This document shows, in pieces, positions 8,031 through 50,567 of a DNA stretch of 64,000 bases. This stretch comes from Chthonomonadales bacterium (GTDB taxonomy: Bacteria > Armatimonadota > Chthonomonadetes > Chthonomonadales > Chthonomonadaceae). The notes beneath the pieces were generated by a model that did not search any database, was not told the DNA's origin, and saw only the letters and a list, made by a program, of their open reading frames with translations. The position numbers and the translations under genes are program-made. Numbering within the stretch: the first letter of the stretch is position 1; each line of letters starts with the position of its first letter. The DNA is taken from positions 5,841 through 69,840 of the forward strand of contig JBBQPO010000001.1 in the NCBI GenBank assembly GCA_038217285.1, read 5' to 3'.

Positions 8031-9196
8031 AGATCACCGAGGTAAAGGCCGTACGGGTCCGGTTTCCGGGTCGGAACGAGCGGGAGGTCGGTCGCAGCAA
8101 GGCGTGGACGCACGACGCGGAGGTCGCCAACCCAATGTCGCGCTACCCCGCTTACAAGCGCCACCGCAGTCTCTGGACCCCGAAATGGGGCGAGGTCTGG
8201 TGCAAAGTAGTGCTTGAAGACGGGACGTGGGGCCTTGGTCAGACCGCCAACGGGCGTCCGGTCGCGGCGGTAATCGACGACCACCTCGGCCCACTGCTGG
8301 TGGGGCACGACGTGATGGCCGGCGAGAATATCGCCGATATGCTCTTCCGCCTGACGAAGCCGTACGGCTCGACGGGACTCGCGTCTTACGCTGTCAGCGC
8401 TATCGATCTGGCGCTCTGGGACGCGCGCGGCAAACACCTGGGTCAGCCGGTCTATGCCTTGCTCGGCGGGCTTCAAAAGGAGAAGATCCAGTGCTACGCC
8501 ACCGGTAACGATGTCGAATGGTACAAAGAACTCGGCTTTACGGCGTTCAAACTGGCCTGCCCCTACGGTCCTGCCGACGGCATCGAAGGGATTCGGAAGA
8601 ATGAGGATTTTGTGGCACGGGCGCGGGAGAGCATCGGCCCGCAGGCGGAACTGATGCTCGACTGCTGGATGGCGTTCGATGTCGAGTACACCGTGCGCCT
8701 CGCCGAAGCCCTGCGGCCCTATGGCCTCAAATGGATGGAGGAGTGCCTGATCCCCGAGGACACCGACGGCCATATCGCCCTTCGGCAGCGGCTGCCCTGG
8801 CAGACGCTCGCGACCGGCGAGCACTGGTATACCCACGTTCCGTTTCTGTGGGCCGCCTCGCACCGGGTCGCCGACATTCTGCAGCCCGACATCAACTGGT
8901 GCGGCGGAGCGACCGCCTGCCGCCGCATTGCAGACGCCGCCGATGCAGCCGGGATTGCCGTCATCCTCCACGCCGGAGGCAACACCGTCTTCGGCCAGCA
9001 CTTCAGTTTCGCGACACCCTGTGTGCCGTGGTGTGAGTTCTTCGTCGCCTCCGATCCGGGCGTTCCGCTCGAAAAAGGCTGGCGCTATCCCGGCCAGAGC
9101 CTGCCGGTCGACGGATGGATCACACCGAACGACGCCCCTGGCTTTGGTCTGGAGGTCGATCCGGCGTGGATCGAACCTTACTGGGGCGCAGAATGA
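8027..9196 (+). CDS. Enolase-superfamily (mandelate racemase/muconate lactonizing) enzyme, sugar-acid (rhamnonate-like) dehydratase candidate
   Basis: 389 aa. The N-terminal capping domain (MKITEVKAVRVRF...WGLGQT) and the barrel region (DCWMAFD, WMEECL, ATGEHW) resemble acid-sugar dehydratases of the enolase superfamily. Confidence 0.75.
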   Translation: MKITEVKAVRVRFPGRNEREVGRSKAWTHDAEVANPMSRYPAYKRHRSLWTPKWGEVWCKVVLEDGTWGLGQTANGRPVAAVIDDHLGPLLVGHDVMAGENIADMLFRLTKPYGSTGLASYAVSAIDLALWDARGKHLGQPVYALLGGLQKEKIQCYATGNDVEWYKELGFTAFKLACPYGPADGIEGIRKNEDFVARARESIGPQAELMLDCWMAFDVEYTVRLAEALRPYGLKWMEECLIPEDTDGHIALRQRLPWQTLATGEHWYTHVPFLWAASHRVADILQPDINWCGGATACRRIADAADAAGIAVILHAGGNTVFGQHFSFATPCVPWCEFFVASDPGVPLEKGWRYPGQSLPVDGWITPNDAPGFGLEVDPAWIEPYWGAE

Positions 9197-10743
9197 GAAC
9201 ACGGCGTCAGCCATCAAGACCGATTCGGCGTCGATCAAGAACCGTGCTCTGGCTGCTGTTGATGGGGTGGGCGCTGCTGGCGGGCGGGGATCGCGATCTG
9301 CGGGCGCAGACGCCGCCCGACTCGAAGGCGCACATCGTGCTCAGCACCGTCAGCGCGAACTACCGCGAGGGCCTGCTTCAACTGGCGCGAGAGTATGAGC
9401 AGAAACACCCTGACGTCTCGGTGACGATCCAGGTGCAGCCGGTCAACGGCTACGAGACGGTCCTGCGCACGCAGATCGAGAGCCACGCCGCCGGCGCGCC
9501 CGACATCTACAACGTCAACTATACCAACGGCTACTACGAGCGCGGACTGCTGGTGAACCTGACGCCGTTTCTCAAAGAGCGCAACCCCTCCACCGGCAAG
9601 CCGTGGCGTGACAACCTGGACGCGCAGTTCCTGGAGAAGTACAAGTCCGGCGGCGACGTCGCCACGATCCCCTTCGACTTCATCGAGGTCGCCTTCTTCT
9701 ACAACAGGCGTCTCTTCGACCGGCTCGGCCTGCAACCGCCCCGCACCTGGGAGGAGATGCTGGCGACGGCGGAGAAGATCCGGCAGGCGGGAATGATCCC
9801 GTTCGCGGTACCGGGCGACACCGACTCCTACTGGTCGGGCACGGTCGGATGGATCTTTCGCTTCTTTACCGACGCCTACCTGCGCGACACGGTACCGCAG
9901 GTGATGTCGCAGCCGGGTGACTGGGACTATGACCGCCGCAAGAATGGGTCTTTTCACCTGAATGTCGGAGACGCCTATAACGACGCGACGGTTGTCGTCA
10001 ACGCGGAGCGTCTGCTGGCCGCCGTGCGGGACCACAAGATCCGCATGGAGAGCCCGCGCTTCCGCGAAGCCTACACCAAAATCTTCGCGTTCGCGCAGTA
10101 CTGGCAGCCCGGCTTCAACGGCACCAGCGCGAACTCCGCGTACCAGTTGTTCCTCACCCAGAAAGCGGCGATGATGATCAACGCCTCGCCGACTATCGCG
10201 ACGCTGACACGCGACATGGACGATCTCTACCCACGGGACCGCTTCGACTGGGGGCTGTTCCCGGTGCCGCCCATGACGCAGTCGGCCTTCCACATTCCGC
10301 CGTTTCGAGGCGTGGGCGGCGCGGGCGTGGTGTTCGGGGTCGTGAAGAAGAGCGACGCGCAGACCCGGCGCGTCGTCGATTTCCTGATGTTCCTGACCTC
10401 GCCGCACGCCGCGCAGACCCTGGTGGCAGAGGCGACGAAGGCCCGGCAGCCGATCAACGGCCCCCTGCTGATTCCGGGCGCGGCGCTGCCGGAGGCGATC
10501 GCGCGCCGCTTCTCCGCCTTCGAACATCGGGGCTTCGAGAAGCTGAGCTTTCGCGGCCTGGCGGACGAACAGGAGTCGGTCTGGAAATGGACGGTCTGGG
10601 CGCAGCGCTATCTGGACGGCCGCATCTCCGTGGACGAGTGCCTGGCGCACTACCAGCAGGTGATGGACGAGGCGGCTCCCCGCGTCGCCCGTGAGATGAA
10701 CTACGATATGGACCCGCGGACGAAGGATCCGCCGAAGCCATGA
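9193..10743 (+). CDS. ABC transporter extracellular solute-binding protein (carbohydrate type)
   Basis: I chose the start MRTRRQPSRP... at 9193 (ATGA overlap with the upstream stop). A hydrophobic signal segment (VLWLLLMGWALLAGG) is followed by family-1 SBP-like sequence. Two permease genes follow. Confidence 0.8.
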   Translation: MRTRRQPSRPIRRRSRTVLWLLLMGWALLAGGDRDLRAQTPPDSKAHIVLSTVSANYREGLLQLAREYEQKHPDVSVTIQVQPVNGYETVLRTQIESHAAGAPDIYNVNYTNGYYERGLLVNLTPFLKERNPSTGKPWRDNLDAQFLEKYKSGGDVATIPFDFIEVAFFYNRRLFDRLGLQPPRTWEEMLATAEKIRQAGMIPFAVPGDTDSYWSGTVGWIFRFFTDAYLRDTVPQVMSQPGDWDYDRRKNGSFHLNVGDAYNDATVVVNAERLLAAVRDHKIRMESPRFREAYTKIFAFAQYWQPGFNGTSANSAYQLFLTQKAAMMINASPTIATLTRDMDDLYPRDRFDWGLFPVPPMTQSAFHIPPFRGVGGAGVVFGVVKKSDAQTRRVVDFLMFLTSPHAAQTLVAEATKARQPINGPLLIPGAALPEAIARRFSAFEHRGFEKLSFRGLADEQESVWKWTVWAQRYLDGRISVDECLAHYQQVMDEAAPRVAREMNYDMDPRTKDPPKP

Positions 10744-11633
10744 AGTGGCCCCTCCTGTTGTGGCGGCATCGCGCCTCCTATCTCTTTCTGCTGCCGACTT
10801 TTCTCTTTCTGGCGGTCTTCAACTATGTGCCTGCCCTCTCCGGGCTGGCCCACGCCTTTACGGAGTGGGAGACCGGCGGCACGGCGCACTGGATCGGCCT
10901 AGGCAACTTCCGGCAGATGGCGGGCGACGAGTTTCTGCGCCTGAGCATCGTCAACCAGCTCCTTCTGCTGATCGCCAATCTGGTCAAGACGCTGGTCTTT
11001 CCGCTGATCGCGGCGGAGATGCTGTTTCATCTGCGCTCGAAGCGCCTCCAGTATGCGCTGCGCACCGCGCTCCTGATTCCGATGGTGGTGCCCGGCATGG
11101 TAGGGGTGTTGCTCTGGGGGTTCATCTACGACCCGAACATCGGCCTGCTGAACCGGCTGCTGACGGCGGTCGGCCTCTCGTCGCTGACGCGGGCCTGGCT
11201 GGGGGACTGGCATACGGCGCTGCCAGCGGTCATCGGGGTAGGGTTTCCGTGGATCAGCGGGCTGGCGCTGCTGATCTATCTGGCGGGGCTGATCGCCATG
11301 CCGCAGGAGGTGCTCGACTCCAGCGCGGTGGACGGCGCGTCGGGGTTGCAGCGGATCTGGTCGGTGGACCTGCCGCTGATCCGGGGCCAGATGCGGCTGC
11401 TCGCGGCGCTGACCATCATCGGGACGCTCCAGGATTTCGGCAGCCTGCTGGTCCTGACCGGCGGTGGGCCGGGCCTGGCGACCCACGTTCCCGCCCTGCA
11501 CATGTACTACGAGGCGTTCCGCTTCGGGCACTATGGCTATGCGTCGGCCATCGGGTTCGTGCTGTTCCTGACGATTCTGGCGTTTACGGTCACGAACATG
11601 CGCTTCGGCCGTTCCACGGTCGAGAGGGGATAG
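10740..11633 (+). CDS. Carbohydrate ABC transporter permease (MalF/UgpA-like)
   Basis: Multi-TM protein with an EAA loop (LDSSAVDGASGLQRIWSVDLPLI). ATGA overlap with the SBP gene. Confidence 0.88.
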   Translation: MKWPLLLWRHRASYLFLLPTFLFLAVFNYVPALSGLAHAFTEWETGGTAHWIGLGNFRQMAGDEFLRLSIVNQLLLLIANLVKTLVFPLIAAEMLFHLRSKRLQYALRTALLIPMVVPGMVGVLLWGFIYDPNIGLLNRLLTAVGLSSLTRAWLGDWHTALPAVIGVGFPWISGLALLIYLAGLIAMPQEVLDSSAVDGASGLQRIWSVDLPLIRGQMRLLAALTIIGTLQDFGSLLVLTGGGPGLATHVPALHMYYEAFRFGHYGYASAIGFVLFLTILAFTVTNMRFGRSTVERG

Positions 11634-11646
11634 GGAGAGGCGCGTC

Positions 11647-12537
11647 GTGACCACAAAGATCAACTCAGTAAAGACGCGCAATGCGTTCGGTCAGGCCGCG
11701 CTCCTCGGCGGACTGCTGGCGCTGTTGGCGCTGGCGCTCGTGCCGTTCGTGATGATGGTGGGGATGTCTCTCAAGAGCAACGCGCAGATCTTCGCGCACT
11801 TCTGGGAGCCGCCCGCCCCGGCGCGCTGGGACTTCTACGGCAAAGCCTGGGATGCGCTGCACGGCTATATCTTCAACACCCTCGTCGTCGCGCTGGCGAC
11901 CGTGGCGGGCGTCCTGACGCTCTCCTCGCTCGCCGCGTACACCTTTGCACGGCACCGCTTTCCAGGGCGCGAAGCGCTCTACTACCTCATTCTCGCCCTG
12001 ATGATGATCCCCGGCGTCCTTACCCTGATCCCGACCTTTGCGCTGGTCAAATCGCTCGCCCTGCCGGAGATGCACCTCGGAAGCTGGTCTTTCGGTCCGT
12101 TCGCGCTCCTCAACACGCGCTGGGCGCTGATCCTGCCCTACATTTCGGGCGGACAGGTGCTGGGCATCGTCCTCTGCCGGGCCTTCCTACAGGGGCTGCC
12201 GGAGGAGATGTTCGAGGCCGCCCGCCTGGACGGGGCGAGCGAGTTCGAGATCTACCGCCGGATCGCCCTGCCTCTCTCCAAGCCCATCCTCGCTGCCCTC
12301 GCCATCACCACGACTCTGAGCGTCTACAACGACTACATATGGCCCCTCGTCACCCTCACCGACAACAACATCCAGACCTTCTCCGTCGGCGTCACCAAAT
12401 TCGCAGGCGAATACAATCTCGACTACGGCCCCACCCTCGCCGGATACGCCCTCGGCAGTCTGCCCCTCCTGCTCCTTTTCGCACTCGGCATGCGCCCCTA
12501 CCTCCAGGGCCTCACGGCCGGTGCCATCAAAGCCTGA
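11647..12537 (+). CDS. Carbohydrate ABC transporter permease (MalG/UgpE-like)
   Basis: GTG start. Multi-TM protein with the EAA loop MFEAARLDGASEFEIYRRIALPLSKP. Confidence 0.88.
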   Translation: MTTKINSVKTRNAFGQAALLGGLLALLALALVPFVMMVGMSLKSNAQIFAHFWEPPAPARWDFYGKAWDALHGYIFNTLVVALATVAGVLTLSSLAAYTFARHRFPGREALYYLILALMMIPGVLTLIPTFALVKSLALPEMHLGSWSFGPFALLNTRWALILPYISGGQVLGIVLCRAFLQGLPEEMFEAARLDGASEFEIYRRIALPLSKPILAALAITTTLSVYNDYIWPLVTLTDNNIQTFSVGVTKFAGEYNLDYGPTLAGYALGSLPLLLLFALGMRPYLQGLTAGAIKA

Positions 12538-12599
12538 CAGCCTTCCAACTCTATCCTTTCTCAAGCTTTCCGAAAGATCGAAAGAAGTTGACGATCCTG

Positions 12600-12912
12600 A
12601 GCGCGGAGGAAGTCGCGCTCACAGGCTCCGTTTTCCAGGTGGAGGATGAGAGGCTCGGGAAGATCTTGCGCGATCGCGGAGTAGCAGGAACCGCAGGCGA
12701 GGGCAATGGCAGCGACGGAAACCGCCACAATCACGACAACCTGCCCATTCTGCTGGCAGGCGGCGGGGCAAGGGCCATCAAACAGCAGGGCCAGCACCGC
12801 ACGTTCGCGCAGGACACGTTCCTCAACACTCTGTTCCTCTCTCCTGGACCGCATAGGCGTACACGCCGGATTGACAGGAGACAGCACAGGGCGCCTCATT
12901 ACCCTTATCTAA
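12600..12912 (+). pseudogene. Remnant of a DUF1552-family gene (C-terminal ~100 codons only, with a +1 frameshift)
   Basis: The frame containing 12711 reads SDGNRHNHDNLPILLAGGG...DTFLNTLFLS, the hallmark DUF1552 motif. The expected continuation LLDRIGVHAGLTGDSTGRLITLI* lies in the next frame after the CT-run at ~12838-12846. The ~330 N-terminal codons are missing. The 5' boundary is approximate. Confidence 0.55.
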
Positions 12913-14020
12913 GTACTGCTCCCAGCAATAGGGGATCGGAAATCATGCTGCCATCGGTAATGCTTCAGAAGCTGGCTCTGACTTCTGGCATTTCGCCAGG
13001 ATCTTCTCGAAAGACTTTTGCGTCCAGCGGAAGGGATGGGCACGTTCATTCCACTCGCGAATGAACGCTTGGATGCGCTCCGACAGAGCGGCTTTGTCCG
13101 CGAAATCCACAATGCGCAGCCGTTGACGCTTGAGAATGCCGGACCACTGCTCCACCTGGTTCAGCCACGAGCAATGCACCGGAGGGTGATACCAGACAAA
13201 ACGCGGGTGACGCGAAAGCCATTCTTGGACTTACTTGCCCGTGTGCATCGGCACATTGTCCAAAACCACGCGGATCATGCGGATATTCTGTGGGATCTGC
13301 TCCTCCAACTGGTTCAAGAAGGCGATCAACTCGATCTGACGTTTGCGCTCGACCAGGTACCCATATACCTGCCCTGTGCGCGTATCAAACGCCGCCAACA
13401 GATTAAGAGCGCCCGCCCGCTTGTATTCGTGCTCCAGACGCACCGGTTGGTCAAAACTCGCCGCCAGGGTAGGCGAGAGACGAGGTCTGGGTTGGAGGTT
13501 GGTGTTCTCATCCAGACATAAAACCATCTCGTCCTCTGCCAGGGGAGCCGTGTAGAGCCAACGAATCTGTTTTACTCGCTCGGCAAAAGCCTGGTCGCGC
13601 GGTACCTTCGCCGACAGCCACATCTTGACGATATAATCATCCACCAGAGGGGGGGAAGAGGGCTTTCGCCCTCGTCCCGGTCGATCATAAAGTCCCTGAA
13701 GTCTTTGCTCCAGAAAGCGTTTGCCCCATTGGCGGACATGGACTTCGGTGAGTCCGACCGCCTTGGCGGTATGACTAAGTGGCATGCCCTGTGCCACCAA
13801 CCAGACTGCTTGGGAGCGGGTGACCAGTCCTGCGGGCAGAGAGGTAGAACGGGACCAACGCAGGGGTTGCTCGCGTTCTGGGTCGGTTAAAACAACGACC
13901 AGTGAGGTTTTTCGGCCTTGCATCGACGGCTCCTTGGGACCGCAGTGCGGAAAGATGCCACTATTATATCCGAAAATCGAGACATTGACAATTCCGACCC
14001 CCTATTGCTGGGAGCGGTAC
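12912..14020. mobile_element. IS630-family insertion sequence (~1.1 kb) flanked by TA
   Basis: 29-bp terminal inverted repeats GTACTGCTCCCAGCAATAGGGGATCGGAA (12913-12941) and the reverse complement of 13992-14020 (GTACCGCTCCCAGCAATAGGGGGTCGGAA), with 2 mismatches. TA (or TAA) lies on both flanks (12910-12911, 14021-14022). It encodes a DDE transposase. Confidence 0.85.
12943..13923 (-). pseudogene. IS630-family DDE transposase interrupted by a single in-frame TAA (13231-13233)
   Basis: The two ORFs (13231-13923 and 12943-13179) are in the same frame. Read-through gives ...VLDNVPMHTGK*VQEWLSRHPRFVWYHPPVHCSWLNQVEQW.... DDE candidates are DENTNLQ, VLDNVPMH and WLNQVEQW. There is an N-terminal HTH region. 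Confidence 0.8.
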
Positions 14021-22485: not shown

Positions 22486-22720
22486 GGTGTCTGGTTGCTC
22501 CGATAAGGTGATCTGTTGCCGTATAAGACAGAGGCGAGGCCAGTATAGTATACACGACAACGTCAAATCGAAGACAGCGCCGGTTTCAGGCCAAGGGCTG
22601 TTTGAGCTTCTTTTGGAAGAACCAACCTGCCGTTCGGCTCAACCGTCGCGTGATACTGTAATGTTGCCATGCTTTATGCCTCTTGTAGTTAAACTGCACC
22701 CTCTCTGTTCACGACATCAT

Positions 22721-25700
22721 TTATACACCGGATGCGATGACGCTGTGGAGCATTGTAGAAATGTATGACGTTTTGTCTTCGACCTGGAAGAGAACGTTGC
22801 GACTTGCAAACTCCGCTTTCTCATCGGCGGCCCACCAGCCGACTGACTTGAATGGAGTTGTCGAGACGATGAAGGAGTTCAGGACGACACTGGGGTCGCC
22901 CAGACGTGCCTCCAGCTCTTTGATGGTCTTGTAGAAGGCGATCTTCGGATCGTTTAGCCCGGCAAGATTGCGAATTCCTTTGGGGTCGATGAAGGTCACG
23001 AACTGTCGGTCGCCTTCGACAAGCCAGAGGATAAAGTCGGGATAGAAGTTGCCCGCCTCGAAGAAGCCGATGCCTCGGCCACGGCTCATATTGCGGAGAA
23101 GGTAGAGTTCGCGCCCCTGGAAGAACTCGCTATGGCTCTCATAGAACTTACGAAGGTCTTCGACGAAGTCGCGCTCGCCGACATTCAGTGGAACCGGCGT
23201 GATCTCCAGCAGTTTGTTCTTGAGATGCAGCAACGGTCTGTAGAGATGTCGGGAGAACCCGAGCGCCACAAGCGAATCGAAACTCCAGCCATCCTCGCGG
23301 AGTTGTCCGGAGGTAACCAGTGATTTCAGTTCCGTCAGTTTGGCGACGACCTCCTCCCGTTCCTGGTCTACCCAGATTCGGTACTGCTGGATGAAGTTCG
23401 GGTCGTCGGGAGCAATCTCTCGGTACTGCGTATGGGGCCGTTCGAACTCCGCTTTGCGGTAGAGATAGAGCCTTTCCACGTATTTCTTGAGCAGGGCGAC
23501 AGCGATCTCCTGCCAGCGACGCACCTTACCGAAATCGGTAAAATCCAGTTCCGCTGCCGGAATGTAGAGCGTATACCAGTCGTCGCGTTGGAGTATCTCA
23601 GAGACAGCCTCTCGGGAGAGGTTCAGGTTATACCAGGAACGCTCCGCCTTGTAGTTCTGCAGCGCAAACCAGATTTCGTCCCAATTGAAGAACGCCGTAT
23701 GGAGAGGCGTCAACTTGTGCGTCTCCAGAGCGCTCTCATCCGCTGGACGGCCTGTTCCCTTGCTCTGTTGCGCTTGAATCCTGGGATACCAGTTCAATGA
23801 AACCGGCGGCAATCCTCCGGCTGGGGGCTCCAGATTCGGTTTCGTTCCCTGCCGCTTAAAATCAACATCCTTCGGAACGTCCAGCACTTTTAATCTCCTT
23901 GATCCAAGGTTGTTGATGACCGGAAGTTCGAAAACGTCTTCTGAATCGCCAGGGGGAACACCCTCCTCTTCAAGCATCTCCTTAAACTGGGTCATGTAGT
24001 CGGCACGAACGCCGAACACATTCAGGGTTTCCAGGAAACGAAGGGACTTCGGCGGTTTGGGATTCAGTTCTAGCATGGACGAGCGTTTCAAGCTCATCTC
24101 ATGCCCCTTCAGGCGCACGCCACGCCCGAAAAGCTGAATGATCTGCGATCCTTCCGAGCGCCCGATGTTCATCAGTCCCATCGTCGAGACCCGCCAACTG
24201 TTCCAGCCTTCTGTAAACTTACGAGAACCGATGAGGATGTTGACCCTGGAATCTTTATCGTTGAGGCGTGCGAAGACCGAACCGCTAAACTGCTTCTCCC
24301 CGGTTATTAGCCCGGCCGCTTCGCAAAGCGCGTGTAGCCTCGGAGCGTCGCCGACGTTGATGACGCCAAAAGCCTCATTGTCGCCCAGACGCAGAGTCAA
24401 CTCGCCGTTCGAGCCTTTGAGCAGATCCACATGGAGAGCGGCCTGGAAGGGAGCATTGCATACCAGATCCAGGATACCTTCGTAGGCTTGCTGACCGGTC
24501 ATCCCCGACGTGTTCAAGTAATCGAAGGCGCCGGAGCCAAAAACGGAGCGGCCCTTCTGATCTCGCAAAGAGCCATCGTAGTTCAGGAGCCTCTGCAAGC
24601 GAACAACCGATTTCGCGCCTGCATTCGCAATGAACTCTTTGAAGAAGAGCAGCACCGTGGTGACGTCCGAGACTTCGCGTTTGTCCTCTGTGCGAACGGC
24701 ATTCACGCTGCCGCCGACGAAGATGGCGAGAGGCTTTTCCAGCAGGAACTTCGCAAATTCGGCACCCTTATCTTTGTATAAGCGGATCTGCTGATAGAAG
24801 GAGAGCAGGCAGGCGGTCAGGTAGAGATTCCGTATCTCGGCATCCTGGTCCTCTACGAGGTTCAGGATGCGATACTCTTTCCCGTAGCCGTCGCGATAGA
24901 AATACTTGTAGGAGTAGTCGAACAAGATACACCGCGCATACTCCTGCTCTAGTTTCCGTTGCGTGGCTCCGGCAGCGGCACGGACGACCTGGCCGAAAGT
25001 CGCAGAGTATTCAAAGGAAAAGCCCTGCTCGGCGAGCCTGTCACGCATCGACTTCCAGACTTCGCCGCTTGCACCGCGATGGCCTTCGTCTACCAGCACC
25101 AGGTTGTTACCTTCGAAGGCTTCGATAGCGACCGCCTTATCGCCCATCTCTTCCTTGAGTTTGGTGATCTCGATGACCTCGACAGCCTTGCCGGAGAAGA
25201 GCGATGCGCCGTCCTTCCGGAAGATGTCGGCTTCGATACCGGACTTCGCGAACTCCTCCAGGTGCTGCCGTGACAGCCCTTCGTTCGGCGTCAACAGGAT
25301 GATTCGGTTCAGGTCGCGCCCGCGCCCATGAGAGTTCAGATAGTGCTTGTACTGGAGGATATTGACGTGCATGAGCAGCGTTTTGCCGGAACCGGTGGCG
25401 CTCCAAAACGCGATTTTCCGCAGGTCTTCCAGTTTGTAAAGCTCAATGCCCGCAGCGTTGTCTCGATTGAACTCCCTGGAGAATGTATTCAAGTCAGCCA
25501 GCAAGCCGTTGAGATCCCGGAAATAGCGGTCGAGATAGATCTCGGCAAAAAGCAGGCTGAGATACTGGAAATACTTCCACTGCATCGGCTCGGGGCGACT
25601 TGCACTGATCGTCTGCGTATGCCGGACGATATTGTTGTCGTAGCGCAGGAGGTCGTCGTCCCGCAAATTGGCGCGTTCGACCGTCCGGTTGACCAACTGT

Positions 25701-25897
25701 TTGTGCAGGTGCGAGACGTTATCAACGTCAAGCCCTTCCAACTCCGGTCGCTTCAACTCCGAGGCAAGGTCTTCAAACCGCTCGACTTCGAAAAGCGACA
25801 GCATCCAGCGCACAAGAACCAGCTTCTGGTCGAAGCGCAAGGCAGGAGCAAGCATCTGCGGTTGCCCCGCATAGACCTGGGTGCGAGCGCGCCGCAT
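22721..25897 (-). CDS. SF2 helicase fused to a C-terminal PD-(D/E)xK nuclease, type III Res-like (1058 aa)
   Basis: Walker A SATGSGKT (25379-25399), DEGH (25079-25090), YSATF, and motif VI QLFGRGVRL. C-terminal nuclease signature YPDF...FIDPKG (22979-23041). The start ATG shares one nucleotide with the RhuM stop (TGATG). Confidence 0.8.
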   Translation of the reverse strand: MRRARTQVYAGQPQMLAPALRFDQKLVLVRWMLSLFEVERFEDLASELKRPELEGLDVDNVSHLHKQLVNRTVERANLRDDDLLRYDNNIVRHTQTISASRPEPMQWKYFQYLSLLFAEIYLDRYFRDLNGLLADLNTFSREFNRDNAAGIELYKLEDLRKIAFWSATGSGKTLLMHVNILQYKHYLNSHGRGRDLNRIILLTPNEGLSRQHLEEFAKSGIEADIFRKDGASLFSGKAVEVIEITKLKEEMGDKAVAIEAFEGNNLVLVDEGHRGASGEVWKSMRDRLAEQGFSFEYSATFGQVVRAAAGATQRKLEQEYARCILFDYSYKYFYRDGYGKEYRILNLVEDQDAEIRNLYLTACLLSFYQQIRLYKDKGAEFAKFLLEKPLAIFVGGSVNAVRTEDKREVSDVTTVLLFFKEFIANAGAKSVVRLQRLLNYDGSLRDQKGRSVFGSGAFDYLNTSGMTGQQAYEGILDLVCNAPFQAALHVDLLKGSNGELTLRLGDNEAFGVINVGDAPRLHALCEAAGLITGEKQFSGSVFARLNDKDSRVNILIGSRKFTEGWNSWRVSTMGLMNIGRSEGSQIIQLFGRGVRLKGHEMSLKRSSMLELNPKPPKSLRFLETLNVFGVRADYMTQFKEMLEEEGVPPGDSEDVFELPVINNLGSRRLKVLDVPKDVDFKRQGTKPNLEPPAGGLPPVSLNWYPRIQAQQSKGTGRPADESALETHKLTPLHTAFFNWDEIWFALQNYKAERSWYNLNLSREAVSEILQRDDWYTLYIPAAELDFTDFGKVRRWQEIAVALLKKYVERLYLYRKAEFERPHTQYREIAPDDPNFIQQYRIWVDQEREEVVAKLTELKSLVTSGQLREDGWSFDSLVALGFSRHLYRPLLHLKNKLLEITPVPLNVGERDFVEDLRKFYESHSEFFQGRELYLLRNMSRGRGIGFFEAGNFYPDFILWLVEGDRQFVTFIDPKGIRNLAGLNDPKIAFYKTIKELEARLGDPSVVLNSFIVSTTPFKSVGWWAADEKAEFASRNVLFQVEDKTSYISTMLHSVIASGV

Positions 25898-26919
25898 CAG
25901 TTGTTCTCCTCGGACGAGCGCCCCTGAATCCGCTTTACTTCCCGCTCGAAATCGCTTTCGAACGCTCTGTCCTGCTTGACCCGAAATTCGGCATATTGCG
26001 CTTCGGCAAGCTGCTTTGCCACTTCCCTGGATACTTCGCCCGGGTTCGTCAAGACTTCGTATTCGTTGAACTTGAGGAACGCGTCGAGACGGGCGACCCA
26101 GTCGGTCATTCGCATAGGAATATGGCGGGCAGCCTGATTTTCGGCATAGTCAAGGTACATGCCGACGATGCGTTCGAGTTCTTTGATCTCCTGCTCGATG
26201 AGATAGTTCTTCGCCACGCAGACGTCGGCTTTCAGGATCTTTCCGTCCGGCCCGTTCTTCCAGTGGGTCAGTCCCATGCTCGGCCTGGAAGCGTCCGCAC
26301 GAGAAGCGATGATCTCTGCCGCCGTCTGTCCTGTGACAGCCCAGTGAAGCTTGTTCTGCACCGTGGCGAAGAATGTCTTCGTGATCTCGGCGTCTTTGTC
26401 GTAGTCTATGCTCGCCTGCTCATAGATGTCCGTGATCTTGAGGTAGAACCGTCGTTCGCTGGCGCGAATTTCGCGTATCCGCTCCAGCAACTGGTCGAAG
26501 AAGTCTTTCCCAAAGCGTGTGTTCAGTTTCAGACGCTCATCATCGAGGACAAAGCCCTTTACGACAAACTCTTTGAGCGTTTGCGTCGCCCAGATGCGAA
26601 ACTGCGTCGCCTGGAGACTATTGACCCGGTAGCCAACGGAGATAACCGCATCGACACTGTAGAACTGCACCTGATATGTCTTTCCGTCATCGGCAGTATG
26701 TGCAAATTTTGCACATACTGCCTCGCTGTCCAGTTCGCCCTCGTCAAAGATGTTAGACAAATGCTTGGTGATGACACTGCGATCAACCGCAAATAGTTCG
26801 GCCATTCGCTTTTGTGTCAGCCAAAACGTGTCCTCGTCAAAGAGAACCTCTACCTTTACCGTTCCGTCATGCGACCGGTAGAGAATGACGTCACCCCGCT
26901 TGAGTTCCGGCTGATCCAT
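25897..26919 (-). CDS. RhuM-family protein (340 aa)
   Basis: [43 protein letters not shown]...YSVDAVISVGYRVNSLQATQFRIWATQTLKEF is a close match to my memory of the RhuM family. I chose the ATG at 26919 because it overlaps the MTase TAA by 1 nt. The alternative start at 26940 would overlap by 22 nt. Confidence 0.8.
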   Translation of the reverse strand: MDQPELKRGDVILYRSHDGTVKVEVLFDEDTFWLTQKRMAELFAVDRSVITKHLSNIFDEGELDSEAVCAKFAHTADDGKTYQVQFYSVDAVISVGYRVNSLQATQFRIWATQTLKEFVVKGFVLDDERLKLNTRFGKDFFDQLLERIREIRASERRFYLKITDIYEQASIDYDKDAEITKTFFATVQNKLHWAVTGQTAAEIIASRADASRPSMGLTHWKNGPDGKILKADVCVAKNYLIEQEIKELERIVGMYLDYAENQAARHIPMRMTDWVARLDAFLKFNEYEVLTNPGEVSREVAKQLAEAQYAEFRVKQDRAFESDFEREVKRIQGRSSEENN

Positions 26920-29900
26920 TAAATGTTCTCCACATCCCACATCAGACGATGGAAATCTTCTTCAATGAGGCGGACTTTCCATGTCTGGTCGTCCCTCTTA
27001 AAATTTTGCAGGTTGTTGTCGCCATTGACATAGATGACATCGAACTCCTGGTCGAGCGTATTATAGGTCTGCTTGCGGAAAAACTCGTCGAGCTTATCGT
27101 TCGGGTTCTCCACTGTATCCCGCCAGATGATAAGGGCCTTCTCCCCATTTTCGCTGTTGCCCGGACCAGGCAAGCGACCGGTGACCACATGGAAACCGCG
27201 AATGACGTCCATCGTCTGCACACGAAGCCCAAGCAGCCAGTTGAATGTCTCGGCAAGGTCAACATTTACTTCCTTTGTCTCACCAATCGTGTCCGTAGCA
27301 ACTTTGAGTTTGTACTGGAATGGGTGGGCGAATTCCTGGATATTGAGCATCGCCTGACTGCCCGCCGTTGCATCCTCTAGAACGTAGTGGAGCATATAAT
27401 CTTCGCGCAACGTGTCATTTGATGCCAACAAGTCGGTTTGAAGGCTATTTGGCTTGTTGATTTCCAAGTTAGTGAGGGCATCTTCGTAGGATTCGAGACG
27501 AAGAACCTTAATGATCCGTGGGCTACGTTCTACCTCTTTGACAGTAGCACGACGTTTGGGCTTTCCGTCCTTCCATTCCGGAGCATATGTTACTTTTTTA
27601 ATGCGAGGTACTAGCACGGTGTCAAAGTATGTCCCCATTTCAACAAGGGAGAATTTACGCCGCCCTCCATCGTCGCGATTGAGGTTGATTACGGCATGTC
27701 CTGTGGTCCCAGAGCCTCCAAAAAAGTCTAAGATAAGTGGCTCCTCATATTGATAGCTCATTGCCTCAACGGCATCAAGGACTGTATAGATTGACTTCGG
27801 ATAAGAAAATGCCTCGCGGTTGCCAAGGATTTCTGCAACGAGAGCAGTGCCGTGTGGACCAGCGTTATACCTACTGTCAGTCCAATTGCTCATAAGACTA
27901 CTTCGCTTGCCCTGAGTATCGACGACAAGTTTTATTGAGCCACCTTCGGTCATCACAATTTCTCCTGTTGCGAGACCTTTGACGGCTGATTCGTATGCTC
28001 TGCACCACACTTTTTCTTCGCCATTAGGACTAATGGGATAGCGTCTCGTATATCCCTCAGCAGTTTTGGCCGTTGGGTATGGTCCGGATGGGCCTGGCGA
28101 CGGTTCAATTCCAACAATCTTGTTGGAATCATCTACAAGTAGTGCATAAAAACTGTTTGAGCGTCCTGCTCGGGCCTTGTTATCGCCAGGTCCACTCAAC
28201 ATAAAACTTCGGTATTCGATGTCTCCAGATTTAGCTTTTCCCTTGAGAATGTCATTGCCTGACGGAGTCAGCATAAGCATATATTCGTGAGTCCGTGAAA
28301 CGTTATGGCTCATGCCTCCTTGAGGATGATGATTTACGACTACCATGTTGCGATCATAGTCAGTAAAGATACTGTCAACCAATTCACACAGGCGAGCCAA
28401 TTCCAGGTCGTCGATCGCAATTGCATAGCATGCGTCCTTGTGCAAAAGATGTAACGATCTGTAAAGTCGATCATTCATAAGCGATAACCAAGACGCATCG
28501 CGGTACGAGTTTTTATAGATGATCTCAGATTGGCCAGTATTGTAGGGAGGATCAATGTAAATACATTGCACTTGTGATCTATATCGTTGGTCCATGACGC
28601 CAAGCGCTTGGAAGTTCTCGCTTCTGAACATCAAGCCATCAGTCAATTCGTTTAGATCACCCAGTACTCTTAGCAACGAATCAGTAAAGGCTTCATTGTA
28701 ATGACGTGTATCTACTACCAATGTAGGATTCGCGTTCAGGAAATCCAATGTCAGCGGAATCGTATATCCAGGCTGTTCGAGATCCTGCTCTATTTCATCT
28801 ATAGCACACAGGTTTATCCACTCTAAACGTTGGGCATCGTTCGCCATAATGTCGTTATATAGCAACTTTGGCACACAGTTGAGAGTGACCAAGTATTGCG
28901 TTTCGACGACAAACTTCTTCTTGAGCCAGAGACGTTTCTGGAAGTCCTCAAGTTGGGCCAGAAATTCGATAATTTTGCTGGCGACCCGGCGAATTGCGCG
29001 CACTTTCGCCAAATACTGTTCGACCTTGGGAGCGGAGGCGTCTTCGATGTCATCGAGGTGCATGACCTCGTTCTTGATGTAGAAATCGAGTTCCCGCCGC
29101 AGGAAGCCGCCAAGGTCTTTGTGGATGAAATAGTCGAAGGTATTTCGAGCGGTATAGTCTGTTAGGTGCTTAGCCAGGACGGTTCGGGTAGGCTCTTTCG
29201 CGGTCGGAGCCGTCGCGTTGAGCAGTCCCTTCCACTCAGCAGGAGCCAAGGACAAGATCGCTTCTTCTGCCACGCCGTTCAGGTCTTTCTGCTTGCGCTT
29301 GGAGGCATCGTTGCGATATTCGAAGCGGAGGAATAGCTCGCCGTTCTCCTCTATGATCGGGTCCGCTTCGACCAGGATGAAGACGCGTTTCTCCGTCTCC
29401 TTATTGTTGTCTCGCTCCGTCTGAGCGTCGGCCAGTTTGAAGTGAACGCGTTTTTCGCCGCCTGCTTTGAATGTGTAGTCGCGGAAGTGTTCGGCAGTCT
29501 TGATGTAGTACTGGTCGGCGTTCGCCCAGTGGAGTTTGACTTCCTCGCCTTCATAGGGGATAGCATAGACGCCCTCTTTATAACGGCGCAGGCTGAGAAA
29601 GTCCCCTTCGTCGTAGTAGCGGCGGAAGAAGTTGTAAAGGTGGTTGAAGACTTCCTGCTCCAGCGCGCCCAGATCGCCCGCACCTGCATAGTTCGCGCGG
29701 AGTTCACGGACTTTGGGGCTGTCGTCGGGATTCATGCCCGCATTCCGAATCTGATTCTCCAGAGTTTCGAGTTCGTGCAGTCCGGCGCTGCCGATATCGC
29801 CCTGGGCGGCGTGCAGCACTTGTTTGACCTGTGGCAGCAGGTCGCGTTCGAGGAAGCGGACGATCTCATCTCGCTTTGAGTTCATAATTCGGTAGATGCC

Positions 29901-29972
29901 GAAGTCGAGATCCGCCTGGTCGAGTTGAAATATCTCGGTCAGTTTGGAAAGCAGTTTATCGTAGTTCGTCAT
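26919..29972 (-). CDS. Site-specific DNA methyltransferase, beta-class amino-MTase (N6-adenine/N4-cytosine family), type III Mod-like but 1017 aa
   Basis: Motif [12 protein letters not shown] (DPPY at 28542-28553) precedes motif [15 protein letters not shown] (27693-27725). The N-terminal extension is ~470 aa. The start shares 1 nt with the SNF2 stop (TAATG). Confidence 0.88.
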
Positions 29973-32833
29973 TAGATGATCCTCCAGCGGATCGTGAAAA
30001 GGTTGTCGGAATAGGTTTTCTGTTGCATGCGTTTCTCAAGAGCGCCGATGAGCAGGTTGCGCTTTTCGATGATTTCGTCTTCGATCTCAAATATCCGTTG
30101 CCGTTGTCGGCGCTGCCTTTGCTCCAGGTCGCGGATTTTGCTCTGAAAGGCGATCTGTTCTTCCGTGGTGGGAGCCTGCCGCGCCTGCCGATTGGCCTCC
30201 CGGAGCTGACCTTTAATGTCTTTCAACTCTTTTTCGGCCGCAAGGATCATGTCATCCGCCCACTTCTCCAGGCGTTCACGCTCCTCATTCATAAAGCGAT
30301 TGTTGGCTTCGAAGGATTGATGCATCGTCGCCTTTTGATGCTGCGCTGATTCGGCGGTCAGTCGCTCGGGCAGCGCCGAGCCATCGACCAGAGCGGTGAC
30401 TGCGCCTCCGCACAAGAACACCTTTTCCAGAACTTCCTGATCTACCGATGCACCGCTATCGGTAAAGCCAGACAGCAAAATGTACTCTTCACGCTCGAAC
30501 GCGTCGATGACAAGCTTATTGAGCGTCATCCAGCCAGCCTGCCCTTGCAAGCCTTCGACCACACTCAGGCGACCACGATGACTTGTGACGTCGAAGGTCA
30601 CCTCTGCCAATGGGGTCGGGCACGCCTTCGCGCGGTCGATCACATGCTCTCCAAGTGGATGAGAAAGCCGATACAGGAAATCGCCATCGATATTCTCTTT
30701 GCTCTTCGAGATGAGATGGTAGGTTCCTGTTGGGATGTCCGAGATCGGCGGACTGTTGAGATCGAAAGCCAGCGCATCGTCATCGAACACGGCGGCATCT
30801 CCGATGATATGCTCGGTAAGCCACCAGAACTGCTTTCCAAATCGGTCGAGTTGCTGCTGCGCGCCTTCTAGTTGCAGGCGCAGGCGCTGATGGATCTCTT
30901 CGTCAAAAAACTCCAACAGCATCTGTCGCGTTGAGGCCATGCGGGCCTTGATGCTGGCATCGAGTTGTTGCCGCAATTCGCGAAAGGCGACCTCGATCTG
31001 CGCGTTTGTTCGACAGGACTGATAGATGTCGTAAATCCGCTTTTCGAAATCGACCCCGGATTCTATGCTTCCGAGGACTTCATCGGACGCGCCGAAAACA
31101 CCATCGAACAGTTGAAACTTCTCCTCCAGGAGTTCAAAGGTGCGCTGATCGGCAGCGTTGCGCTCATTGACGAAGTTGATGACCACAACGTCGTGCTTCT
31201 GCCCATACCGATGACAGCGCCCGATTCGTTGCTCGATCCGTTGTGGGTTCCACGGCAGGTCGTAGTTCACGACCAGGCTGCAAAACTGAAGGTTCACGCC
31301 CTCGGCCGCCGCTTCCGTAGCAATAAGGATCTCGGCGTGATTCTTGAACTCCTCGATGATAGCGGAGCGCGCATCGACATCTCGCGAGCCTGTGACTTTG
31401 CCGGAGCCTTTATTGGCAGCGACCCAGCGATCGGTAAGCTTCCGAGCCTCCTCGTCGTTATTCGAGCCGTTGAAGCGAACGACTTTGCCCGCGTACCCAT
31501 TGGCATCGAGGAAGTTGCGAAGGTAGGACTGGGTGCGCCGCGACTCCGTGAAGATGAGCGCCTTTCGTGCAGCGCCGTTCTCCTGCATCTTCGTGAAGCC
31601 GATTTCGAGCGCGTTCAAAAGCGTGCGAGACTTGGAGTCTACTCCGATGCTCCGCGCCCACCGAATGTAGTGATCCAGCTCTTGTATCTCGGCGTCGAGC
31701 TTTGCAACGTCGATGGCGGGAGCGTTCTCACTCTCCTCTTCGACGTCGATGGCGCCCTCAAAGAGGTCGTCGTCCTCAAGATCCTCCCCGGCGATGATTT
31801 TGTCGACAATGTCGCCCTCGGGCATACCTGACTTCAGGTCCATGAGCCGCTGTTTGATGATCTCCAGCGTTCCCGCGATGGCCGGAGAGGACGAGGCGAG
31901 GATCTTCCTCAACCGGAGAGTCAAAAGTACGCGCTGGCGTTTGGGAATGCTGAAGGTCTCCGCGCGTTGGAGGAAGGTTGAAATAGCCTCGTAGAGAGTA
32001 TGCTCTTCATCGGTAGGGTGGAACGGGCGAGTGACGGCCTGGCGCTTTGTATACTGGACGTATTCCAGCACATCCTTCCGCAGCGTCCGCTTGCAGAACC
32101 CTTTGAGGCGCGTCTTCAGATCGTCCAGGTCGGCATCCGCACCGACATAGAGCGCACGAAAGACGGACGGCTCTCCGAACATATACTCGTCGATGATGGA
32201 GGACATGCCGTAGAACTCCATTAAGGAGTTCTGGAGCGGGGTCGCCGTCAGGAGAATCTTCTTAGGCCCTTCAACGGCGAGACGAATAGCCTGTCCTGTT
32301 TTGTTGCTTGGCTGGTGGGCATTGCGCAGCTTATGCGCCTCGTCGATAACGACCAGATTCCAACCGACCGCGCGAATCTCGTCCTTCATTTTTGCGGCGA
32401 AATTGTACGAACAGATGACGACCTTACCGCCTTCGAACGGACTGGCGGCGCCACCGTTCTTCACCTGGTTGTAGGCACGAGCATCCAGAATGATCGAAGG
32501 CAGATTGAACTTCTCTTCAAGTTCTGTCGCCCACTGCTTGCGAATCGAGGCCGGACAGATGACGAGAAGCCTGCGCTTACGCTCCGCCCAGAGTTGACAA
32601 AGAACAAGGCTTGCTTCGATGGTCTTGCCAAGACCGACTTCATCGGCAAGAAGGACGCCCTTGGAGACCGGCGACCGCAGCGCAAAAAGAGCGGCTTCAA
32701 TTTGGTGGGGGTTCAGATCTACATTGGCATCGAATAAGGCCATTGAAAGCCTTTCGAGTCCCTCCCGCGATGCTTGCCGAGTCAGATCATGAGCGAAGTA
32801 CTTCGCATGGTAGTCGGTAACGAGCAACGCCAT
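29972..32833 (-). CDS. SNF2-family ATPase/helicase (953 aa) with an uncharacterised C-terminal region
   Basis: Motifs LLADEVGLGKTIEA (Walker A, 32621-32635), VVIDEAHKLRN (DEAH, 32333-32344), LLTATPLQNS, LPWNPQRIEQRIGRCHRYGQ. N-terminal YHAKYFAHDLTR. RBS GGGAG upstream. Confidence 0.9.
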   Translation of the reverse strand: MALLVTDYHAKYFAHDLTRQASREGLERLSMALFDANVDLNPHQIEAALFALRSPVSKGVLLADEVGLGKTIEASLVLCQLWAERKRRLLVICPASIRKQWATELEEKFNLPSIILDARAYNQVKNGGAASPFEGGKVVICSYNFAAKMKDEIRAVGWNLVVIDEAHKLRNAHQPSNKTGQAIRLAVEGPKKILLTATPLQNSLMEFYGMSSIIDEYMFGEPSVFRALYVGADADLDDLKTRLKGFCKRTLRKDVLEYVQYTKRQAVTRPFHPTDEEHTLYEAISTFLQRAETFSIPKRQRVLLTLRLRKILASSSPAIAGTLEIIKQRLMDLKSGMPEGDIVDKIIAGEDLEDDDLFEGAIDVEEESENAPAIDVAKLDAEIQELDHYIRWARSIGVDSKSRTLLNALEIGFTKMQENGAARKALIFTESRRTQSYLRNFLDANGYAGKVVRFNGSNNDEEARKLTDRWVAANKGSGKVTGSRDVDARSAIIEEFKNHAEILIATEAAAEGVNLQFCSLVVNYDLPWNPQRIEQRIGRCHRYGQKHDVVVINFVNERNAADQRTFELLEEKFQLFDGVFGASDEVLGSIESGVDFEKRIYDIYQSCRTNAQIEVAFRELRQQLDASIKARMASTRQMLLEFFDEEIHQRLRLQLEGAQQQLDRFGKQFWWLTEHIIGDAAVFDDDALAFDLNSPPISDIPTGTYHLISKSKENIDGDFLYRLSHPLGEHVIDRAKACPTPLAEVTFDVTSHRGRLSVVEGLQGQAGWMTLNKLVIDAFEREEYILLSGFTDSGASVDQEVLEKVFLCGGAVTALVDGSALPERLTAESAQHQKATMHQSFEANNRFMNEERERLEKWADDMILAAEKELKDIKGQLREANRQARQAPTTEEQIAFQSKIRDLEQRQRRQRQRIFEIEDEIIEKRNLLIGALEKRMQQKTYSDNLFTIRWRII

Positions 32834-33060
32834 GAAGGCAGATCTCCCTACTCTGGAAAACTTAAACTGCTTCCAACATAACTGAACGCCCCGGCGAGGC
32901 TGGCCCCGATTGGGCTTCTACCGGTCGAGATAGGAAGAGGATAAATCAGTATACACGAAAACAGGCAAGTGATGATCCTGCCCTTCACGCGTCAACAACC
33001 ATTGTGTACGAAGCGTCCGTGTTGCCGGAGCAGCGCAAGTCGGCGGTAAGTGACCGCCCT

Positions 33061-34323
33061 CTAAGCAGGGTCCGCGCCTTGCCAGAGCGCGGAGAGCGGC
33101 ACGGCGAAGAGCTTTGCTCCGAACGGCACCACGCGCTCACCTGTATAGAGCACGATGCCACGCACAAAGCGCTCCGCTGTCAGCGCTTCCAACGCGCGCA
33201 GGCCCTTGAAGTCCTCTGCCCCTACCGTGCTGGACGCTTTCACTTCTATGCCGACCAGGGTGCCATCGCGCTTTTCCAGCAGCAGATCTACTTCTTCTCG
33301 GTTGGCGGTATGCCAATGGTAGAGCGTTGGGCGTGTTTCGCTCCAGCCGATGTCTTTTAGCACCTCCATGACCACAAAATTTTCGAGAAGGCCGCCCAGA
33401 TGCGTCGGTTCCTGCAAGAGTCTCGCTTCCGAGACACCGAGCAGATGCGCTGCAAGCCCGGTATCCGTCAATACGATTTTCGGCGATTTAATAAGACGGG
33501 TCGTCAGGTTTCCACTCCACGCTGGCACCGTGCGGACAAGATAGGTGGTTTCGAGCAGAGTCAGGTAGCGCGTGAGCGTGGAGTAAGGCACGTTGGCGGT
33601 GCGAGAAATGTCTGCAGCGTTCAGGAGCGAAGCGGTCCGAGCCGCAAGCAGTGCCAGGAGGCGCGGCATCTGAGTAAGGCCTTCAATGTTAGCCAGATCT
33701 CTGACATCCCGCTGCAGAATGGTTGCGATATACGATTCAAACCAGTTCTGTCGCCTTCTCGCGGGACGAGTCATCGGTTCGGGGTAGCCTCCCCGCACAA
33801 CACGTCCTATAATATCTTCGCGTGATGTCACAGGCGCGGAGGCAAAGGCGTTCAGAGGCGAGGCGAAAGCAAACAGTCTGTCGACAAAACTCACACTTAC
33901 CCCTTCGATCTCCGCTTGCGCGAGAGGCCACAGGGTCAGAATCTCCATACGGCCAGCCAGAGATTCAGAGAGCCTGGGAAGCAAGAGAACATTGGTCGAT
34001 CCAGTCAGCAAAAAGCGTCCGGGCCGCCTGTCTCGATCCACGCTGGCTTTGATCACAGGAAATAGTCCGGGCACGCGCTGTACTTCGTCCAGAATGACCG
34101 GTTCACCCGAAGCACTCAAGCTTGCGATAAATCCCGTCGGATCCGAAATAGCCGCCGAAAGGACATCGAGATCATCGAGCGTAGCATAGGTGGCAGAATT
34201 CGATGTTATTTCCTGCGCGCGTACAAGAGTTGTTTTCCCGGTCTGGCGGGCACCACCCAGAAGCACGACAGGAGTGTCGGCCAGTGCATCCCGCATTTGC
34301 TCGGCTACATTTCGTCGGTACAT
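33061..34323 (-). CDS. AAA+ ATPase with a C-terminal DUF4143 (restriction-endonuclease-like) domain
   Basis: Walker A LLGGARQTGKTTLV. C-terminal EVDLLLEKRDGTLVGIEVKAS (a D/E...ExK-like motif), characteristic of COG1373/DUF4143 proteins. Confidence 0.82.
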   Translation of the reverse strand: MYRRNVAEQMRDALADTPVVLLGGARQTGKTTLVRAQEITSNSATYATLDDLDVLSAAISDPTGFIASLSASGEPVILDEVQRVPGLFPVIKASVDRDRRPGRFLLTGSTNVLLLPRLSESLAGRMEILTLWPLAQAEIEGVSVSFVDRLFAFASPLNAFASAPVTSREDIIGRVVRGGYPEPMTRPARRRQNWFESYIATILQRDVRDLANIEGLTQMPRLLALLAARTASLLNAADISRTANVPYSTLTRYLTLLETTYLVRTVPAWSGNLTTRLIKSPKIVLTDTGLAAHLLGVSEARLLQEPTHLGGLLENFVVMEVLKDIGWSETRPTLYHWHTANREEVDLLLEKRDGTLVGIEVKASSTVGAEDFKGLRALEALTAERFVRGIVLYTGERVVPFGAKLFAVPLSALWQGADPA

Positions 34324-50426: not shown

Positions 50427-50453
50427 TCGATCATGGCCATTTTATGGCCTATA

Positions 50454-50525: not shown

Positions 50526-50567
50526 TCACGCATTAGAAAAGGAGTCGTTAACTCCTCCAACACACCA

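Follow-up and report, generated by a model that had tools for sequence, protein, structure and literature searches.

Why does the lowest-GC DNA of a bacterial genome segment lie inside a single methyltransferase gene, and does its composition record a recent acquisition? This question is raised by an open reading frame (ORF) at 26919..29972 (minus strand; 1017 aa) in a 64,000-nucleotide stretch of the genome of a Chthonomonadales bacterium (contig JBBQPO010000001.1, positions 5,841 to 69,840), which was analyzed as a whole and is referred to here as the window. The gene encodes a long-form type III-like Mod protein, a beta-class N6-adenine methyltransferase, and belongs to a tightly packed minus-strand operon that comprises, in order, an SNF2-family helicase gene, the Mod gene, a RhuM-family gene, and a Res nuclease gene. 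A preliminary description of the sequence had proposed that the target recognition domain (TRD) and catalytic cassette of Mod was exchanged recently from a lower-GC donor and that its N-terminal extension recruits the SNF2 or Res partner. We conclude, with a probability of about 0.8, that the window Mod serves as modification subunit in a long-form type III-like restriction-modification (RM) system of wide distribution and consists of a conserved frame holding an exchanged core of other ancestry.

A conserved frame around a core of different ancestry

Segment identities and sliding identity, computed on an alignment of 120 family members, associate different parts of the window Mod with different relatives. 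Group 1 (P0009, P0011, P0015, P0007, P0021, and others) is 78 to 85% identical to the window Mod at its ends (aa 1 to 360 and 871 to 1017), 33 to 45% identical at aa 361 to 570, and only 14 to 25% identical at aa 571 to 745. Group 2 (P0002, P0088, P0095, P0111, and others) shows the reverse, with 70 to 76% identity at aa 571 to 745 and 51 to 62% at the ends; P0002 reaches 76% in the TRD versus 58 to 62% in the frame, and P0088, P0095, and P0111 reach 70 to 71% versus 51 to 54%. In the alignment at the junctions, near-perfect identity to group 1 persists up to aa ~358 and resumes at aa ~884, which places the identity breakpoints at aa 358 to 365 and 878 to 884.

The gene can thus be divided into an N-terminal part of the frame (28899..29972, minus strand; aa 1 to 358), which is 80 to 100% identical to group 1 until aa ~358 and ends in a conserved anchor; an exchangeable core cassette (27324..28898, minus strand; aa ~359 to 883), delimited by breakpoints in identity and in GC content at third codon positions (GC3) and by incongruent ancestry; and a C-terminal part of the frame (26919..27323, minus strand; aa 884 to 1017 plus the stop codon), which is 78 to 96% identical to group 1 from aa ~881. 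The core, with a GC content of 0.461, contains a linker, methylase motifs IV to VIII, the TRD, and motifs X and I to III. The SNF2 and Res proteins of two group 1 loci (L001 and L004) are 82% and 81% identical, respectively, to those of the window, and the corresponding values are 59% and 55% for L002, the locus of P0002, which has the closest core.

No tree-like history can place the TRD ahead of the frame in similarity to one set of relatives and far behind it in similarity to another; exchange is required. Judged from these alignments, the core of the window Mod has a different ancestry from its frame and its partner genes. The mosaicism suspected in the preliminary description is therefore borne out, as similarity is not co-linear over the full length and the segment identities are discordant in both directions. 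The unit needs redrawing, however: the discordant stretch (aa ~359 to 883) is the whole methylase core with its TRD rather than a TRD lying between the motifs.

GC content within the Mod gene and across the family

The five GC counts of 60-nt lines made by hand in the preliminary description were reproduced exactly (0.383, 0.40, 0.417, 0.517, and 0.70), and sliding GC at 300, 500, 1,000, and 1,500 nt places the lowest-GC DNA of the 64 kb inside the Mod gene. Over the whole window, which has a mean GC of 0.602, the minimum is 0.417 at 300 nt (28431 to 28730), 0.448 at 1,000 nt (27931 to 28930), and 0.457 at 1,500 nt (27381 to 28880). GC3 is 0.45 at aa 361 to 880 of Mod, compared with 0.70 at aa 1 to 360 and 0.65 at aa 881 to 1017; it is 0.68, 0.67, and 0.70 in the SNF2, RhuM, and Res genes, respectively, and 0.78 to 0.85 in host genes. 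The GC3 contrast within Mod is significant (Fisher P value = 7e-14), and a model with two breakpoints, for which the maximum-likelihood positions are codons 380 and 831, gains 32 units of log-likelihood, compared with a maximum of 8.7 among 200 permutations. In the other island genes, no window of 100 codons falls as low in GC3 as the Mod core. The drop relative to the rest of the operon is therefore real in a computed GC and GC3 profile, and amino acid composition is ruled out as its cause, since the shift sits at third codon positions.

The breakpoints in GC3 approximately match those in identity, the right-hand pair less closely than the left-hand one. The GC minimum (nucleotides 28200 to 28950, corresponding to aa ~340 to 590) extends over the helical linker that precedes the methylase and over motifs IV to VIII, and the TRD proper (aa ~571 to 715) has a GC content of 46 to 49%. 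The central segment, which had been read as an AT-rich TRD, is indeed AT rich, but the low-GC stretch takes in the entire methylase core (aa ~359 to 883), with its minimum around motif IV.

Such a dip is found throughout the family. GC3 is lower in the core than in the frame in 77 of 81 related loci, with a mean difference of -0.14. Relative to the SNF2 and Res neighbors, the mean difference is -0.11 (standard deviation, 0.07), and the value for the window is -0.24, with 4 of 73 loci as strong. Across 80 loci (taken from L001 to L084, in hosts of 27 to 70% GC), core GC3 equals 0.77 times frame GC3 with an intercept of 0.00 (r = 0.94; residual standard deviation, 0.054). This relationship predicts a core GC3 of 0.532 for the window, and the observed value is 0.454 (residual, -0.078; z = -1.44), with 3 of the 80 loci as low. 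The family norm thus accounts for about two thirds of the dip in the window.

The core is almost never GC richer than the frame, AT-rich hosts included; free mixing of cores predicts GC bumps in AT-rich hosts, and none were seen among the 80 loci. Cores whose TRDs are 63 to 76% identical to that of the window have GC3 values of 0.31 to 0.68 according to the locus that carries them, each below the value of its own frame. The AT-richness is mostly a family-wide property of the variable module and carries no timestamp of a recent import. A donor search with the core alone (aa 365 to 875) yielded no match above 68% identity, and third-position identity to all comparators is 0.27 to 0.57, so that "recently" lacks support. 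The claim of a lower-GC donor fares no better as a reading of the dip, given that the central decrease in GC3 is present in 77 of 81 loci and that the window has a z score of only -1.44, although a lower-GC source for the window core is possible.

A widespread family whose cores move between frames

A database search with the window Mod returned at least 8,000 homologues. All 119 full-length homologues listed are 994 to 1130 aa long and nearly all cover the query fully; the large size, which had been presented as an oddity of the window gene, is thus a trait of its family. Matches of 500 to 890 aa to a search with the core (aa 365 to 875), which might have represented a shorter architecture, proved to be truncated gene calls of the long family. 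In a scan of one genome per species, relatives were present in at least 586 genomes across phyla, including Planctomycetota, Pseudomonadota, Bacillota, Bacteroidota, Chloroflexota, and cyanobacteria, and also in metagenome-assembled genomes of Saccharibacteria and Methanospirillum. An HTH-SNF2-Mod-Res module whose Mod is 37% identical to that of the window over its full length is located at 3751 to 13503 of the Escherichia coli plasmid pEC316_2 (L085; NZ_CP018955.1). The plasmid is conjugative, of the IncFIB/IncFII type, and has IS26, IS30, and ISKpn8 near the module; PLSDB also yielded 11 hits on Klebsiella plasmids.

Pairwise identities among 67 loci (2,211 pairs) separate the frame from the core. 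Frame identity is correlated with Res identity (r = 0.94) and with SNF2 identity (r = 0.76), while TRD identity is correlated with neither Res identity (r = -0.02) nor frame identity (r = 0.02). Most group 1 pairs that are 85 to 94% identical in the N terminus are 17 to 49% identical at aa 500 to 745. Distant frames share a TRD type, and identical N-terminal lineages carry unrelated TRDs. From these sequence comparisons, core exchange appears to be a family-wide habit. Exact nucleotide runs of 20 to 38 nt that are common to distant loci cluster in conserved blocks left of the core (aa 140 to 160, 260 to 307, and 340 to 355), and those on the right are sparser (aa 820 to 834 and 960 to 1000). 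These shared runs are possible recombination anchors.

Catalytic identity of the window Mod

The translated sequence places motif IV (DPPY) at aa 474 to 477 (28542..28553, minus strand), with D474, P475, and P476 invariant among the 120 aligned sequences, and motif I (FGGSGTT), predicted to bind S-adenosylmethionine, at aa 751 to 757 (27702..27722, minus strand), with F751 and G753 invariant. About 470 residues precede motif IV and 260 follow motif I, in agreement with the preliminary description, which gave ~470 and ~250. DPPY lies upstream of FxGxG with the TRD between them, which is the order of beta-class enzymes and of type III Mod proteins. The approximate TRD (aa ~571 to 715; 27828..28262, minus strand) lies between motif VIII and motif X, flanked by stretches that can be aligned to solved Mods. 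It is the least conserved stretch of the protein, with 8 to 30% identity to the relatives of the frame and 49 to 88% identity to the relatives of the core.

Profile and structure comparisons lead to the same family. PF01555 covers aa 468 to 767, and the PADLOC profile MTase_III PDLC03646 (1,057 positions) matches Mod with an E value of 3.3e-246, the best-scoring stretch being aa 209 to 1013. With phmmer, Mod matches the solved structures 6k0w, 7dsu, and 4zcf at E values of 2e-20 to 8e-16. An AlphaFold2 model of the whole protein (pLDDT of 86.6; pTM of 0.83) has its best Foldseek matches among the EcoP15I, Helicobacter pylori, and Mbo45V Mod proteins (E values of 9e-20 to 8e-15), with type II beta-class enzymes behind them. 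Conserved motifs and the predicted fold both indicate that the window Mod is an intact restriction-modification methylase of the beta class with a Mod-like structure. As had been noted, the ORF is larger than a canonical Mod (1017 aa versus 567 to 644 aa for the solved type III Mods that it matches, i.e., ~370 to 450 aa longer), and ~350 residues of the extra length are N terminal.

The N-terminal domain, partner genes, and passenger slot

No Pfam or NCBIfam family was found for the N-terminal ~358 to 365 aa of Mod, and a model of the N-terminal 365 aa alone (pLDDT of 75.7) had no fold match in the PDB (best E value, 1.7). A profile of these 365 aa matched 3,206 cluster representatives, and in nearly all of the 150 matches listed the domain begins within the first ~30 residues. 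The domain contains LDFGIYR and GEEVKLHW blocks, and residues L22, D23, F24, G25, G142, E143, E144, and W149 are invariant in the 120 sequences.

The SNF2-family helicase (29972..32833, minus strand; 953 aa; PF00176 and PF00271) is encoded directly upstream of Mod in the window, the SNF2 stop codon overlapping the Mod start codon (ATGA). An SNF2 gene is located upstream of Mod in 46 of 84 related loci. In ~24 of the 84, no SNF2 gene is present on either strand despite ~9 kb of upstream sequence, and all of these loci retain the long Mod, N-terminal extension included, and Res; examples are L013, with TPR and ATPase genes upstream of Mod, and L069, with an M78/HTH gene in that position. Recruitment of SNF2 as the sole function of the N-terminal domain is therefore ruled out, and the proposal that the extension is an SNF2-specific surface had to be abandoned. 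The co-inheritance of the frame with Res (r = 0.94) fits a Res-docking role and is no proof of it.

The long Res (22721..25897, minus strand; 1058 aa; PF04851) combines a superfamily 2 (SF2) ATPase with a C-terminal PD-(D/E)xK motif and matches the PADLOC profile REase_III PDLC03654 (1,154 positions; E value of 3.6e-223), with its best stretch at aa 318 to 1051. Its motifs ATGSGKT, DEGH, QxxGRGxR, and PDF...IDPKG are 82 to 100% conserved across the 67 loci, and Res was present downstream of Mod in every locus with a long enough contig on that side. The slot that separates Mod from Res is filled differently from locus to locus. In the window it is occupied by a passenger gene of the RhuM family (25897..26940, minus strand; 347 aa; PF13310, E value of 1.6e-109; PADLOC PDC-S05), which overlaps the end of Mod at its listed ORF start and the Res start codon at its stop codon (ATGA). 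A RhuM gene also occupies the slot in L028 and L065. Elsewhere the slot contains an uncharacterized protein of 388 to 402 aa (L001, 13171 to 14379; L004, 13036 to 14202), a Fic/DOC protein (L013, 11949 to 13361), a protein with an AbiJ N-terminal domain (L069, 12171 to 13118), or a Ser/Thr kinase with a small ORF (L086, 11332 to 12869). In L001 and L004, a GmrSD_N (DUF262) gene is additionally located between SNF2 and Mod.

Comparison with known systems

Canonical type III Mod proteins (EcoP15I, 4zcf; H. pylori, 6k0w; Mbo45V, 7dsu) are the closest to the window Mod by both sequence and structure and, like it, have DPPY before FxGxGTT. Canonical type III systems also share with the window a Res with an SF2 ATPase and a PD-(D/E)xK motif, here located downstream of Mod. 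Unlike the canonical proteins, the window Mod has an extra N-terminal domain of ~358 aa and a longer C terminus, and about half of the related long-form loci add an SNF2 helicase. The long-form type III-like family is already catalogued, as PADLOC files it as a type III Mod, and literature searches for a system of SNF2, long Mod, and Res retrieved nothing specific.

Module exchange is likewise already known, from modA. In modA, the 5' and 3' ends are conserved and the central recognition domain is replaced en bloc by horizontal exchange; the center has a significantly lower GC content than the 5' and 3' regions (PMC3311624; PMC1557822). The modA and mod genes of Haemophilus and Neisseria thus resemble the long Mod family in having conserved ends, a hypervariable center, and a conserved Res. 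They differ in that the variable unit of modA is described as the recognition domain, whereas the discordant unit of the window is the whole methylase core with its catalytic motifs, and in that modA exchange takes place within two genera, whereas that of the long Mod family crosses phyla. The simple-sequence repeats that mark modA phasevarions were not found at the window Mod, with no tandem repeats in 22500 to 33100 at a minimum score of 30, and phase variation was rejected on that basis.

Recognition domains are also described, in a study of H. pylori, as moving as units between RM methyltransferase genes, the movement taking place within one genome and between nonorthologous genes (PMC3467074). 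In contrast, no second copy or silent cassette was found here, as tblastn searches of the 64-kb window for silent copies of the core or frame recovered the Mod gene alone. A weak 22-nt inverted pair (27023 to 27044 and 29043 to 29064) is 82% complementary. A local specificity shufflon in the style of type I hsdS was rejected on these grounds: there are no silent copies, inversion at the 22-nt pair would break the ORF, and the pair is attributed to chance.

Weighing the explanations

A core imported recently from a lower-GC genome would leave the dip as the unameliorated footprint of a single event, and its GC3 of 0.45, against 0.65 to 0.70 in the frame and operon partners and 0.78 to 0.85 in host genes, has that appearance. 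The nearest TRD relatives, moreover, are in loci of 41 to 54% GC, and the window ranks near the bottom of the family trend (values as low occur in 3 of 80 loci and, against the SNF2 and Res neighbors, in 4 of 73). We nevertheless consider recent import unlikely, because nearly every locus shows such a dip (77 of 81; z = -1.44 for the window), related TRDs adopt the composition of the carrier locus (GC3 of 0.31 to 0.68), and no donor exceeds 68 to 76% identity, with synonymous sites near saturation. It is far less plausible that there was no exchange and that the core evolves faster in place, under diversifying selection on specificity with AT-biased mutation and weak codon selection. A proportional dip that is never reversed, even in AT-rich hosts, does resemble an in-place process rather than free mixing, and conservation across the alignment is lowest in the core. 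Fast divergence, however, cannot make a TRD more similar than its frame, as it is in P0002 (76% versus 58 to 62%) and in P0088, P0095, and P0111 (70 to 71% versus 51 to 54%). Relatives with 80 to 85% identity in the frame have only 15 to 25% in the TRD, unrelated TRDs sit on identical N-terminal lineages just as one TRD type sits on distant frames, and TRD identity is uncorrelated with that of the frame and of Res (r of about 0). We hence regard divergence in place as highly improbable as the origin of the mosaic, while AT-biased evolution of this kind may contribute to the AT-richness itself.

Two further proposals concern the class of the system. It is improbable that the operon is a DISARM- or BREX-like multigene defense driven centrally by SNF2, with the long Mod as a self-marking subunit, even though the best PADLOC and NCBIfam matches of the SNF2 protein are DrmD-like, with weaker, secondary matches to BrxHI/BrxHII, and even though class 1 DISARM, like the window, has a DrmD-type SNF2 helicase beside an adenine methylase in a defense island. 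Against NF038318 (DrmD_b), SNF2 reaches 679.6, short of the 950 required, and the match is confined to aa 32 to 664. The five operon proteins contain no DUF1998 or PLD domain, genes of the DrmA, DrmB, and DrmC types are absent, and the operon has no match to PglX, PglZ, or BrxC. The methylase, unlike that of class 1 DISARM, is a PF01555 beta-class enzyme with a Mod-like structure and is paired with a Res that has the type III Res profile and motifs, and ~24 related loci with ~9 kb of upstream sequence do without SNF2. A bolder proposal, which we regard as rather unlikely, is that the long Mod and long Res with optional SNF2 form an RM class of distinct mechanism instead of a decorated type III system, in which the frame docks Res and SNF2, any beta-class core can be plugged in, and a dedicated, directional exchange process underlies the 0.77 rule.

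Several observations also weigh against our preferred reading of a conserved frame with an exchanged core. The right GC3 breakpoint (codon 831) and the right identity breakpoint (aa ~880) are ~50 codons apart, and neither group of relatives is close at aa 800 to 880. The right edge is therefore poorly defined, and the core may be a patchwork in its own right. Neither a close donor nor a close relative of the frame was found: the highest identities are 68% for the core and 76% for the TRD, and third-codon-position identity to every comparator is only 0.27 to 0.57. The co-inheritance of frame and Res could come from linkage only, and our literature searches found no methylation, restriction, or protein-interaction data for any member of the family.

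Genomic surroundings

The SNF2-Mod-RhuM-Res block has a GC content of 54%, versus ~61.5% for the genome outside it, and adjoins alaS. A 15-nt direct repeat, AGTATACACGA[C/A]AAC, at 22547-22561 and 32948-32962 in the flanking intergenic regions, brackets the block. It was set aside, as ~4 chance pairs are estimated per 13.5 kb and there is no longer surrounding similarity. Directly upstream of the operon is a gene for an AAA_14/DUF4143 ATPase (33061-34323, minus strand; PADLOC candidate PDC-S01, E value of 2e-168). An AAA_14/DUF4143 gene is likewise found near Mod in L069, and L039 has a tblastn match (42%) to the window ATPase near its Mod.

A second defense locus, a type I RM system at 52-4558 (plus strand), consists of hsdR (615-3860), preceded by an hsdS fragment (52-618) at the edge of the window and followed by a gene for a YgjP-like metallopeptidase (3857-4558), all on the plus strand. 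Its GC content is 53 to 56%, compared with 61 to 66% for most other window DNA. The sole tRNA gene of the window, tRNA-Asn (GTT; 50454-50525, minus strand), sits in a local GC trough (0.46 over 50361 to 50860).

A possible mode of action and its significance

The system is built from Mod and the long Res; in the window, these are joined by a putatively accessory SNF2 helicase encoded upstream and by a RhuM passenger gene between the two. The frame (the N-terminal ~358 aa and the C-terminal ~134 aa) appears to be co-inherited with Res, and also with SNF2 in loci that have it, and the core, a predicted beta-class N6-adenine methylase of ~525 aa with its TRD, appears to be exchanged between lineages. 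Replacement of the core would proceed through homologous recombination at conserved flanking blocks, and each swap would redirect methylation and restriction to another target sequence but leave the Res-holding surfaces in place. By analogy with EcoP15I, a Mod dimer would read an asymmetric site through the TRD and methylate one adenine, and Mod-bound Res would hydrolyze ATP and cut unmodified DNA, as EcoP15I-type enzymes do. SNF2 would be an optional helper in this scheme, with RhuM an accessory.

The long Mod family is common: the scan of one genome per species detected it in at least 586 genomes across phyla, and conjugative IncF plasmids of E. coli and Klebsiella carry it as well. Our literature searches turned up no study of it. 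Within this family, the variable module regularly shows up as a GC dip inside the mod gene, and such a dip, taken alone, is no proof of recent import. If the frame-plus-core design is true, the family would offer a natural chassis on which RM specificity can change: new target sequences would arise when one block of ~1.6 kb is swapped, the nuclease contacts staying fixed.

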